The translations under genes and the position numbers were made by a program. The notes below the pieces were generated by a model. It did not search any database. It was not told the origin of the DNA and worked only from the letters and a program-made list of their open reading frames with translations. 64,000 nt of DNA from Escherichia phage vB_EQ1, in sequence record PQ516281, one strand, 5' to 3'. Numbering within the stretch: the first letter of the stretch is position 1; each line of letters opens with the position of its first letter. Positions 43,571-45,186 of this stretch are shown one piece after another.

Positions 43571-44470
43571 TTATTCCTCGATTACGACATCTTCGTATTT
43601 AGGTATATTATACGGCGAAGAAATTAAAGCGTTAAAGTAGATGAACTCACCAAGACCTGGATGGAATACTTCTTCAGGATTTTCGAAATATTGAATCTTC
43701 GGACGTCCTTTAAGAATTTGATAGTACTCAGTTTTAGTTGGATTAAAAATTCGAATCAGCGCTTCTTCAGGATACTTATTTCTGTCGAAACTATTATTTG
43801 GATCAGTTATATAAAGCGGTTGACCTAATTGAATTGCGCATTCAACAACTTGTTCAAAACGATAGCATGGGTCACTAATTCGAAATGGATGAAAAATACC
43901 ATCTAGATGAATAGGAGCCAAATCACCTACAAGACGCTGCATGACGGAAGGACGTATAACTTTCTGCGTTACGATAATCTTATTACCATCTGCACCTGCG
44001 TTAACCAGCACTTCTTTTTGACGTTCATTCAACACAGTAGTTTGAAGTGAACGATTAACCGACAACATGTCGGTTTTTAAGAATTCGTCAATATAAAAAC
44101 GTGGTTTATTAGGGTCTGCAGTGATATTGAAATTGAATTCTACGTCAAAAGCGCCATCATATCCAGTGATATCTGTGATTAGAAAATCACAATCATAATA
44201 AGCAATTAATGAATCAACCACAAATTCATTTTCAGACCAGAAATATTTACGAGTGTTATACGCGTTATCTTTATACCATAATGGAACAAACTTAAATTCT
44301 GGGAAAAGACGTTCACATTCTTTAATATCAGATGCATTACGTGGATATGTAATCACATCGCCTGGATTAGCACGGTGCAAATGAAGTTGGAAGTTGCCAT
44401 CCTTAAGGATAGCATACTGTCCAGTTTCATAAGACCGCATACTCAAAATAGGTACGCGGAAAATAGCCAT
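43571..44470 (-). CDS. Hypothetical protein (299 aa) at the beta-gt position; candidate transferase
   Basis: ORF with no recognisable motif by eye; occupies the slot of T4 beta-gt but does not resemble it. Confidence 0.5.
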   Translation of the reverse strand: MAIFRVPILSMRSYETGQYAILKDGNFQLHLHRANPGDVITYPRNASDIKECERLFPEFKFVPLWYKDNAYNTRKYFWSENEFVVDSLIAYYDCDFLITDITGYDGAFDVEFNFNITADPNKPRFYIDEFLKTDMLSVNRSLQTTVLNERQKEVLVNAGADGNKIIVTQKVIRPSVMQRLVGDLAPIHLDGIFHPFRISDPCYRFEQVVECAIQLGQPLYITDPNNSFDRNKYPEEALIRIFNPTKTEYYQILKGRPKIQYFENPEEVFHPGLGEFIYFNALISSPYNIPKYEDVVIEE

Positions 44471-45186
44471 TAGTCAAGAAACCCTTTAACATAATCAAAA
44501 TCACGTTCAAACACATGGGCACTTACCATGGTATGAGTATAATCACCAACTTCTACACCACATTCGTTAGCGATATAATGAAGTAATTTTCCTTGGAGAT
44601 AAAAATCCAACTGCATAACAACAGCACAGTTCTGAGAACGCATATGACAGTGGGTATAAAGCTTACCATCGCGAATATAATAAGTCACTGAGTCAGTACA
44701 TGGATATTCAAGCGTTTCGTCCGAATCAAGCAAAGCCTGATCAGAACTTTCTAGAATTTGGAACACAACTCTTCGAGAGTTAGGCTTCTCTTTAAGTTCT
44801 TTTAGAAGAGCCGGTAATTGGGCCGCAATGCGAGGACCGTAGAAAGTGTTGAAGTTTGCAGGCAAAGCGTCTGATTTAGGTTTAGAAATAAATTTAGCGA
44901 CATTAGGATATGCCTTAAACGCTTCTTCTGCATCAGTACCACCAGAAATCATAAACTTCCAGAAGTCTTCGGCATATTCATAAGAGATGCGGTTAATACG
45001 TGGGTCGGTCATTTTGAATGATGATGGAGTGTCAACAACTACTGTCATAGACCCAATTTCATTACAACGTCCAATACGAGAATCAGTTACGAATTCCGGG
45101 TTTTCTAAAATTTCACGATTGACTGCTTTAAATGCGGTTTGAAAATCTGCGGCTTTGATATATTTCATTGTGTTATGTTTTCCCAT
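44470..45186 (-). CDS. Thymidylate synthase-family pyrimidine hydroxymethylase (dCMP hydroxymethylase-like, divergent from T4 gp42; 238 aa)
   Basis: Active-site YPCTDSVTYYIRDGKLY, HMRSQN and ...ECGVEVGDYTHTMVSAHVF align with ThyA/dCMP-HMase (C-nucleophile, RS-D/N, EVGD, AH-Y/F); Asp 31 residues after the Cys matches the cytosine-specifying Asp179 of T4 dCMP-HMase. Confidence 0.65.
   Translation of the reverse strand: MGKHNTMKYIKAADFQTAFKAVNREILENPEFVTDSRIGRCNEIGSMTVVVDTPSSFKMTDPRINRISYEYAEDFWKFMISGGTDAEEAFKAYPNVAKFISKPKSDALPANFNTFYGPRIAAQLPALLKELKEKPNSRRVVFQILESSDQALLDSDETLEYPCTDSVTYYIRDGKLYTHCHMRSQNCAVVMQLDFYLQGKLLHYIANECGVEVGDYTHTMVSAHVFERDFDYVKGFLD

Follow-up and report, generated by a model that had tools for sequence, protein, structure and literature searches.

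The thymidylate-synthase-like protein in the gene 42 slot of Escherichia phage vB_EQ1 is very probably a flavin- and O2-dependent dCMP C5-hydroxylase

Results

Identity of the enzyme in the gene 42 slot

In the 64,000-nt stretch of Escherichia phage vB_EQ1 DNA that was analysed (record PQ516281; hereafter the window), the slot of T4 gene 42 is occupied by an ORF of 238 aa (44470..45186, on the minus strand, as are all features given below), which very probably encodes a flavin- and O2-dependent dCMP C5-hydroxylase built on a thymidylate-synthase fold, i.e. a 5hodCMP synthase orthologous to RB69 gp48 and HY126 AfhB. This activity is assigned because the predicted protein is 100% identical in amino acid sequence to RB69 gp48, which has been assayed, and nothing in the sequence speaks against it. 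None of this is new, as papers of 2025-2026 on proteins with 99% or full identity have already described the enzyme together with its structure, product and cofactor.

The window derives from a Mosigvirus and the region is 100% identical to that of Escherichia phage MRostami-2023e. The ORF starts with ATG, preceded 5 nt upstream by a GAGG Shine-Dalgarno sequence. According to PMC13326640 (Lee et al.), RB69 gp48 converts dCMP to 5-hydroxy-dCMP (5hodC being formed on expression of gp48), takes the oxygen of the product from O2, as found by 18O2 labelling, and binds an FMN-like flavin. AfhB of phage HY126 (PDB 9IQC/9IR2/9IQU) differs from the ORF in 3 of 238 residues (99% identical), and the AF2 model of the ORF (pLDDT 93) agrees with 9IQC at a TM of 0.96-0.98, while ThyA and MilA structures are matched with a probability of 1.00. 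The PDB title of 9IQC reads "Monooxygenase dependent on riboflavin with dCMP and FAD" and that of 9IQU "phage HY126 dCMP hydroxylase-AfhB"; on the physiological flavin the sources differ, Lee et al. describing an FMN-like one and the PDB titles naming FAD and riboflavin. As for the final product, published work describes RB69 DNA as carrying arabosyl ether-linked to 5-hydroxycytosine, not to hmC, and 5-ara-dC was found independently in another Mosigvirus (PMC13390438).

Judged by its modelled fold, its Pfam match, its predicted catalytic Cys and its putative phosphate-binding Arg residues, the ORF is a member of the ThyA superfamily, as the original prediction had it. Pfam Thymidylat_synt (PF00303) matches residues 122-235 only (E 2.4e-15), with 56.9 bits against a gathering cut-off of 24.3, and in the alignment Cys163, Arg37, Arg138/Arg139 and Arg183 correspond to C146, R21, R126/R127 and R166 of E. 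coli ThyA. The C-terminal tail of ThyA is missing. Three further positions depart from ThyA in the alignment: Glu160 (L143E), Asn186 (D169N, within MRSQN) and Asp194 (N177D), which together with Cys163 give a C-N-D-E signature (Cys/Asn169/Asp177/Glu143). Asp194 aligns with Asp179 of T4 gp42 and Asn177 of E. coli ThyA, so that the Asp (not Asn) expected at this position is indeed there, and the proposal that dCMP rather than dUMP is the substrate agrees with this residue, with the published assays and with the dCMP co-crystal of the 99% identical protein.

The Asn in place of Asp169 is given as the marker residue of the hydroxylase clade in PMC13326640, and D169N alone suffices to separate that clade from the hydroxymethylases. 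The alignment shows the full C-N-D-E signature also in the RL38J1 (Rhizobium phage) enzyme, which has been verified, and among the 141 nearest 50%-cluster representatives it is carried by 67, which take the top ranks, the representatives with the T4 gp42-type C-D-D-D ranking below about 70 with C-N-D-E. The motifs quoted in the original prediction as a skeleton shared with gp42 are all found in the ORF (EYPCT, MRSQN, VEVGD and SAHVF), but two of them are not shared with T4 gp42: instead of RSxN the T4 enzyme has RSND, with Asp at the fourth position as in ThyA, and it has YKAGS where ThyA has LEVGD. By tblastn, no second gp42-, td- or ThyA-like gene was found in the 64,000-nt window.

Alternative functions

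The label given in the original prediction was that of a hydroxymethylase, i.e. a divergent equivalent of gp42 that uses methylene-THF to form 5-hm-dCMP, which is later arabinosylated. The ThyA fold, the catalytic Cys, the cytosine-specifying Asp and the acidic residue 143 (as in gp42 and MilA) all speak for such an enzyme, as do its location in the gene 42 slot and the fact that the nearest solved fold besides the AfhB entries is that of the CMP hydroxymethylase MilA (TM 0.83-0.85); moreover, RB69 DNA was first reported, in 2018, to contain arabinosyl-hmC (PMC6024577). Yet for the RB69 protein of identical sequence this reading has been refuted, and for the window ORF it is very improbable. 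The RB69 protein yields 5hodC, whose elution sets it apart from the T4 product and whose oxygen is labelled by 18O2 (PMC13326640); NMR and MS reveal an ether link that lacks the CH2, and the assignment of 2018 is by now regarded as an error. In addition, the folate-contacting Asp169 has become Asn, and the crystal structures carry FAD rather than folate, 9IQC and 9IQU having been deposited with dCMP and FAD.

Most GenBank records annotate the gene as a thymidylate synthase (dUMP to dTMP), in line with its matches to Pfam PF00303 and to PHROG 160 "thymidylate synthase". The probability of this function is negligible, given Asp for Asn177, Asn for Asp169, Glu for Leu143 and the missing C-terminal ThyA segment; besides, the scores against the NCBIfam ThyA equivalogs are all far under their cut-offs (the best being 68.5 versus 174.6 bits), and the experimental product is 5hodC (PMC13326640). 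With GenBank mostly still reading "thymidylate synthase" or "dCMP hydroxymethylase", and the analogy with T4 leading readers to the latter wrong function, the assignment as a dCMP C5-hydroxylase is useful as a correction.

The surrounding module and its origin

As originally predicted, the enzyme in the gene 42 slot is far more divergent from its T4 counterpart than its neighbours are from theirs: a BLASTP comparison with T4 gp42 gives 25% identity only (54/218, E 7e-13), versus 62-86% for gp41 (86%), gp40 (80%), uvsX (68%), gp43 (62%), regA (79%), gp62 (74%), gp44 (78%), gp45 (79%) and gp46 (82%). The T4 42-beta-gt block is replaced by a block of 5.7 kb, which runs from a nucleotidyltransferase/kinase gene to a Tmk-like gene and has conserved junctions. 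On its upstream side the junction is marked by the small membrane-like orf47 (48795..48938), because the T4 counterpart of this ORF sits just upstream of gene 42.

Just upstream of orf47 lies a SIS-domain arabinose-5-phosphate isomerase gene (48935..49570; RB69 gp55 orthologue). Within the block follow a bifunctional arabinose-phosphate kinase/UDP-arabinose pyrophosphorylase (47068..48753; an intact ORF of 561 aa, analogous to RB69 gp52:53 and HY126 AfhE) and a HAD-type sugar phosphatase (46682..47083; RB69 gp51/HY126 AfhF analogue), both named after PMC13326640, then a peptidase-U32-family protein (45464..46624; PF01136, RB69 gp50 orthologue and putative hydroxylase) and orf79 (45228..45467), a small ORF specific to Mosigvirus. 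On the other side of the hydroxylase gene, whose stop is overlapped by the start codon of the next gene, come the first DNA arabinosyltransferase (43571..44470; RB69 gp46:47, here one intact ORF of 299 aa, with no Pfam match) and a thymidylate-kinase-like nucleotide kinase (43021..43569; RB69p045 orthologue, phrog_761). A second DNA arabinosyltransferase is encoded at 21651..22751 (99% identical to its orthologue RB69p003); the three latter names follow Table 1 of PMC13326640. Together with the gp56 dCTPase (34426..34962; the dCMP supplier, 97% identical to RB69p028), the remaining published pathway genes are all present in the window. A scan of the module for sigma-70 promoters and terminators yielded no more than shuffled controls.

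Regarding the origin of the module, a recent horizontal import was considered on the basis of composition and rejected, with a GC content of 0.367 versus 0.374 for the window and a GC3 that falls among the values of the flanking genes. The 5.7-kb block is common to distant Straboviridae, among which its divergence tracks that of the core genes. Because composition matches the flanks and divergence is core-like, the data point to an old exchangeable cassette inside the Straboviridae, not to a recent foreign import. Of the suggestion that the modification module came in from another lineage as one unit, what stands is that the block differs from that of T4 between conserved junctions, whereas composition and divergence point away from a recent import.

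Discussion

Proposed pathway

In the proposed mechanism, the ThyA-type Cys163 would activate C5 of dCMP, with cytosine probably selected by Asp194, while the isoalloxazine ring may sit in the folate site, as altered by D169N and L143E and in the absence of the ThyA C-terminal tail. Formation of 5hodCMP would open the route to phage DNA decorated with arabinose. Following the literature, gp56 dCTPase would remove dCTP, and 5hodCMP would be phosphorylated and then built in instead of dC, after which the 5-OH would be arabinosylated at the DNA level, the sugar donor being UDP-arabinose supplied by the co-encoded SIS isomerase, kinase/pyrophosphorylase and HAD phosphatase. The expected end product is restriction-resistant DNA containing mono- and di-arabinosyl-5-hydroxycytosine.

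A possible second hydroxylase

The known U32 members need no O2 to hydroxylate C or U at C5 (PMC5727448, PMC6599085, PMC10990095), and it is conceivable, if tentative, that the module holds two alternative cytosine C5-hydroxylases, namely the flavin- and O2-dependent ThyA-fold enzyme and a prephenate-dependent, O2-independent U32 protein, which would take its oxygen from prephenate and provide 5-hydroxycytosine during growth of the host without O2. Such a module would parallel the aerobic/anaerobic pairs TrhO/TrhP and UbiI-H-F/UbiU-V. The U32 protein matches PF01136 with 42.2 bits (cut-off 22.4). Its C203 and C209 align with Cys residues of the family, while the third motif position (UbiU-type) is Ala; further conserved Cys residues are C192, C23x and a C-terminal CX4CX3CX2C, which could stand in for the missing Cys of the four-Cys 4Fe-4S motif. 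A curated subfamily was not obtained, the UbiU match being sub-threshold (18.5 bits versus a cut-off of 440), and no PDB relatives were found at E<=1.

In 54 related phage records the U32 gene adjoins a CM_2 chorismate mutase with intact catalytic residues, most carriers outside Mosigvirus having the U32 gene followed by the mutase; in Shewanella phage Thanatos-2 the two genes lie elsewhere in the module, again as a pair. Only phages of Enterobacterales and Shewanella carry the pair, which is missing from modules of Acinetobacter and Pseudomonas phages that are otherwise collinear and, in Rhizobium and Tenacibaculum phages, from the vicinity of the ThyA homologue. Large phage-like metagenome contigs hold relatives of the U32 protein with 50-58% identity, situated among genes of deoxynucleotide metabolism; the unknown neighbours there give weak epimerase-like hints only.

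In the window, the chorismate mutase slot of related phages is held by orf79, which is less conserved than any other module gene. A degenerate chorismate mutase was considered for it but not borne out (18-22% identity to phage chorismate mutases, hhalign probability 0.3%). Pfam and NCBIfam gave no match to orf79, even at E 10, and a single-sequence AF2 model has three helices at a pLDDT of only 54.

The U32 gene was also observed to be confined to phages whose hosts are facultative anaerobes.

Among the papers searched, none was found that ties a phage U32 gene to 5-hydroxycytosine, although He et al. 2026 and Mahler et al. 2025 may already address it. If a second hydroxylase of this type exists, its independence of O2 would account for how gut phages keep their DNA fully modified in anoxic hosts, given that the known hydroxylase needs O2, and the U32 family would gain its first deoxynucleotide or DNA substrate.

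Comparison with known systems

The U32 protein resembles RlhA, TrhP and UbiU/UbiV in its PF01136 domain and in the two aligned family-conserved Cys residues, but its identity to the E. coli paralogues is no more than 17-21%, and it has the extra C-terminal CX4CX3CX2C cluster. Related phages couple the U32 gene to a prephenate-forming chorismate mutase, in contrast to the window, with orf79 in that slot.

With bacterial ThyA (E. coli, L. casei, S. aureus) the 238-aa ORF shares the core C-terminal half (30% over 115 aa), the phosphate-binding Arg residues and the Cys, whereas N177D, D169N, L143E and the lack of the C-terminal tail set it apart, as do substrate, cofactor and product. The CMP 5-hydroxymethylase MilA (PDB 5B6D, 5JNH) is closer in fold (TM 0.83-0.85 at 23-24% identity), gives a full-length sequence match (E 1.6e-11) and is likewise cytosine-specific, but it prefers ribonucleotides, depends on folate, is longer (about 320 aa) and serves antibiotic biosynthesis in Streptomyces. 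T4 gp42 (PDB 1B5D/1B5E), which is absent from the 60 best PDB sequence matches and the 50 best fold matches of the ORF, has in common with it the ThyA fold, the Cys nucleophile, the cytosine-specifying Asp, an acidic residue 143, dCMP as substrate, the genome slot and the first step of cytosine hypermodification. Its signature is C-D-D-D (Cys/Asp/Asp/Asp), however, whereas the window ORF has Asn at 169, and it uses methylene-THF and water to form 5-CH2OH, whereas enzymes of the RB69 gp48 type use flavin and O2 to form 5-OH (PMC13326640). With RB69 gp48 and HY126 AfhB, finally, the window ORF has both gene context and signature residues in common, without any difference of substance.

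Identity of the enzyme in the gene 42 slot

The ORF in the gene 42 slot (44470..45186, minus strand; 238 aa, with an ATG start and a GAGG ribosome-binding site 5 nt upstream) is the counterpart of RB69ORF048c, and its translation matches RB69 gp48 at 238/238 residues. According to Lee et al. (NAR 2026, PMC13326640), RB69 DNA has cytidine in mono- and di-arabosylated form, in which an ether bond joins the sugar to 5-hydroxycytosine, and expression of gp48 together with the phage dNMP kinase gives 5hodC in E. coli DNA. The purified protein is described there as yellow with an FMN-like flavin, and 18O2 as the source of the label in the oxygen of its product (i.e. 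dCMP is converted to 5-hydroxy-dCMP with oxygen from O2 and a bound flavin); the same paper credits the flavin-containing HY126 crystal structure and an in vitro reconstitution to He et al. (Nat Chem Biol 2026). In another Mosigvirus, 5-ara-dC was reported by a second group, which termed the earlier RB69 arabinosyl-hmC assignment erroneous (PMC13390438). The ORF thus encodes a dCMP C5-hydroxylase and not the hydroxymethylase of the original prediction; the function is experimentally established for the identical protein, and is thus already known and different from the one proposed.

The best matches in a sequence search of the PDB were 9IQC/9IR2, 238-aa proteins that differ at three residues, and 9IQU (E 1e-159 to 1e-162), followed by S. 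aureus ThyA and MilA (E about 1e-11 to 1e-12), with T4 gp42 absent from the best 60 matches. The AF2 model (pLDDT 93), for which 41 sequences were used, superimposes on 9IQC with a TM of 0.96-0.98, the next-ranked folds being MilA (0.83-0.85) and ThyAs (0.71-0.78). The entries 9IQC ("Monooxygenase dependent on riboflavin with dCMP and FAD") and 9IQU ("phage HY126 dCMP hydroxylase-AfhB with substrate dCMP") were both released on 2025-07-16. The ThyA machinery has been kept (Cys163; Arg37, Arg138/139 and Arg183; His224), which suggests that Cys163 would activate C5 as the nucleophile and that the flavin may occupy the former folate site.

Organisation and exchange of the modification module

All genes of the gp43-gp41 stretch lie on the minus strand, in the transcription order gp43 (49611-52322), SIS isomerase, orf47 (48795-48938), nucleotidyltransferase/kinase, HAD phosphatase, peptidase-U32 protein, orf79, hydroxylase, a 299-aa ORF (43571-44470) whose start is overlapped by the hydroxylase stop, Tmk-like kinase, uvsX, gp40 and gp41. 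The hydroxylase gene is thereby flanked by the UDP-arabinose genes (SIS, kinase/pyrophosphorylase and HAD) and the first arabinosyltransferase (the 299-aa ORF), roles assigned from PMC13326640, while gp56 dCTPase (34426-34962) and a second arabinosyltransferase (21651-22751) were found elsewhere in the window. In the RB69 reference record both the arabinosyltransferase (ORF046c/047c) and the kinase/pyrophosphorylase (ORF052c/053c) are in two pieces, which Lee et al. (PMC13326640) ascribe to sequencing errors; the single intact ORFs of 299 and 561 aa (the latter at 47068-48753, minus strand) agree with this.

The 41-bp spacer 5' of the hydroxylase gene (45187-45227; minus-strand reading ..AAGCTTTATGAATTGAGTATATAATAACT..) contains a GCTTTA element ~12 nt upstream of TATAAT and looks, by eye, like a middle (MotA-dependent) promoter of T4, a candidate absent from the output of the sigma-70 scan.

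Over 43000-49700 the window matches Escherichia phage MRostami-2023e at 100% identity, and RB69 and about 150 further Mosigvirus genomes at ~98%. In T4 the order is 43, imm.1, imm, a small unannotated ORF, 42, beta-gt, segA, uvsX. The 47-aa, hydrophobic orf47, which is also conserved with an ORF of Serratia phage LC53, matches this small ORF, which directly precedes gene 42 in T4 (T4 locus L002, 8231-8320, minus strand; 57% over 30 aa, E 1e-10) and so marks the conserved upstream junction of a swapped modification cassette, with the block between orf47 and uvsX (43021-48753) replacing 42-beta-gt-segA of T4. The imm and imm.1 slot is occupied by the SIS gene. Both T4 proteins were matched in the window at 37990-38665 (minus strand), i.e. 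~10 kb away beside the region of gene 61, where RB69 has them too.

The same cassette, with gp43 on one side and uvsX/gp41 on the other, is present in LC53, in Shewanella phage Thanatos-2 (where SIS is missing), in Pseudomonas phage PspYZU05 and in Acinetobacter phage Kimel. Identities to the window are 60-83% for module proteins versus 70-75% for core genes in LC53, 44-79% versus 68-71% in Thanatos-2, and 46-70% versus 59-60% in Kimel. Given this co-divergence, and since neither the GC content of the module (0.367) nor its GC3 differs from the flanks, it is an old cassette alternative within the Straboviridae. The proposed acquisition of the module as a unit thus holds in so far as there is good support for a block swap at conserved junctions, whatever its direction and donor, that distinguishes the T4 lineage from that of RB69; there is no sign of a recent import from a foreign source.

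The peptidase-U32 gene and chorismate mutase

The homologue of the peptidase-U32 protein (45464-46624, minus strand; PF01136 match) is given by Lee et al. (PMC13326640) only as a "sugar or heterocycle reductase". Characterised U32 proteins are O2-independent hydroxylases with prephenate as oxygen donor, RlhA forming ho5C2501 in 23S rRNA, TrhP forming ho5U34 in tRNA, and UbiU/V acting in anaerobic ubiquinone synthesis (PMC5727448, PMC6599085, PMC10990095). Only two canonical Cys residues align in the phage protein, which occurs in 221 phage records, each at at least 80% identity, with Enterobacterales and Shewanella as hosts. In the Acinetobacter and Pseudomonas phages, where the ThyA homologue is ~70% identical, the modules examined are collinear and the U32 gene is absent. 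The gene was seen only in phages of facultative anaerobes, including the related-phage loci L007:5992-7502 and L008:7001-8391.

In LC53 and Thanatos-2 the gene after U32 scores above the gathering score of Pfam CM_2 (chorismate mutase), and the same immediate succession was observed in Klebsiella, Yersinia, Proteus and other phages. Such mutases occur in 54 phage records; in every record among those listed the match neighbours U32, the ThyA homologue or both. In Thanatos-2 the U32-mutase pair lies elsewhere in the module, its members still together. The mutases have kept the residues that we take to be equivalent to R28, K39, E52, S84 and Q88 of the E. coli enzyme. In Mosigvirus the slot is filled by orf79 (45228-45467, minus strand), which is restricted to this genus, has no detectable similarity to chorismate mutase (hhalign probability 0.3%), is the least conserved module gene (90% to RB69 versus 98-100% for the others) and is shortened to 47-58 aa in many database copies; this would fit either a remnant in decay or a small gene unrelated to the mutase.

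Since the known hydroxylase needs O2 and the hosts are facultative anaerobes, an anaerobic route is proposed: the putative U32 hydroxylase, with chorismate mutase where present, might provide a prephenate-dependent way to 5-hydroxycytosine. Metagenomic U32 relatives (50-58% identity) lie on large phage-like contigs, beside dCMP deaminase, thymidylate kinase (Tmk), UDG, a PolIII-alpha-type polymerase and SSB (L010, a 466-kb JGI contig, and L013) or beside NT5C, deoxynucleoside kinase, a radical SAM protein, a second U32 and nucleoside deoxyribosyltransferase (L011); such loci may represent further DNA-modification systems that hydroxylate pyrimidines. No paper linking U32, chorismate mutase and phage was found in the literature searched, the two likeliest papers lying outside it.

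Comparison with T4 gp42 and ThyA

T4 proteins match the window (tblastn) at 86% (gp41), 80% (gp40), 68% (uvsX), 62% (gp43), 79% (regA), 74% (gp62), 78% (gp44), 79% (gp45) and 82% (gp46), whereas the sole match of gp42 is the hydroxylase ORF, at 25% over 218 residues (BLASTP E 7e-13); no second ThyA- or gp42-like gene was found in the window by tblastn. The predicted divergence relative to the neighbouring genes (25% versus 62-86%) is thus borne out. E. coli ThyA matches the C-terminal 115 residues at 30%. In the multiple alignment Cys163 lies opposite gp42 Cys148 and ThyA Cys146, Glu160 opposite gp42 Asp145 and ThyA Leu143, and Asp194 opposite gp42 Asp179 and ThyA Asn177, so that the cytosine-specifying position indeed holds Asp rather than Asn.

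Asn at ThyA position 169 has been proposed as a marker of the hydroxylase clade (Lee et al., PMC13326640). With the ORF as query, 1.84 billion cluster representatives gave 2764 matches at E<=1e-3, of which 338 reached E<=1e-10, and four positions were tallied in an alignment of those of the best 150 whose length is at least 180 aa (141). Cys146/Asn169/Asp177/Glu143 was present in 67/141, which take nearly all top ranks, and the Cys/Asp/Asp/Asp pattern of T4 gp42 in 41/141, only among matches of ~E 1e-17 or weaker. Position 169 is Ser, Cys or His in about 20 representatives (P0138, P0165, P0179, P0190 and others) of the 141, with Cys146, Asp177 and Glu143 kept, and their product specificity is outside the published D169N rule. 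Asn169/Asp177/Glu143 is also found in the verified RL38J1 enzyme and in the homologues of Kimel, LC53, Thanatos-2 and Tenacibaculum phage PTm1.

The original prediction counted RSxN and EVGD as skeleton shared with gp42, and both details are wrong: T4 gp42 reads RSND where the ORF reads RSQN, and from the tally RSxN is therefore the very feature that separates the two enzymes, while EVGD, present in the ORF, is aligned with ThyA and is a feature of ThyA, not of gp42.
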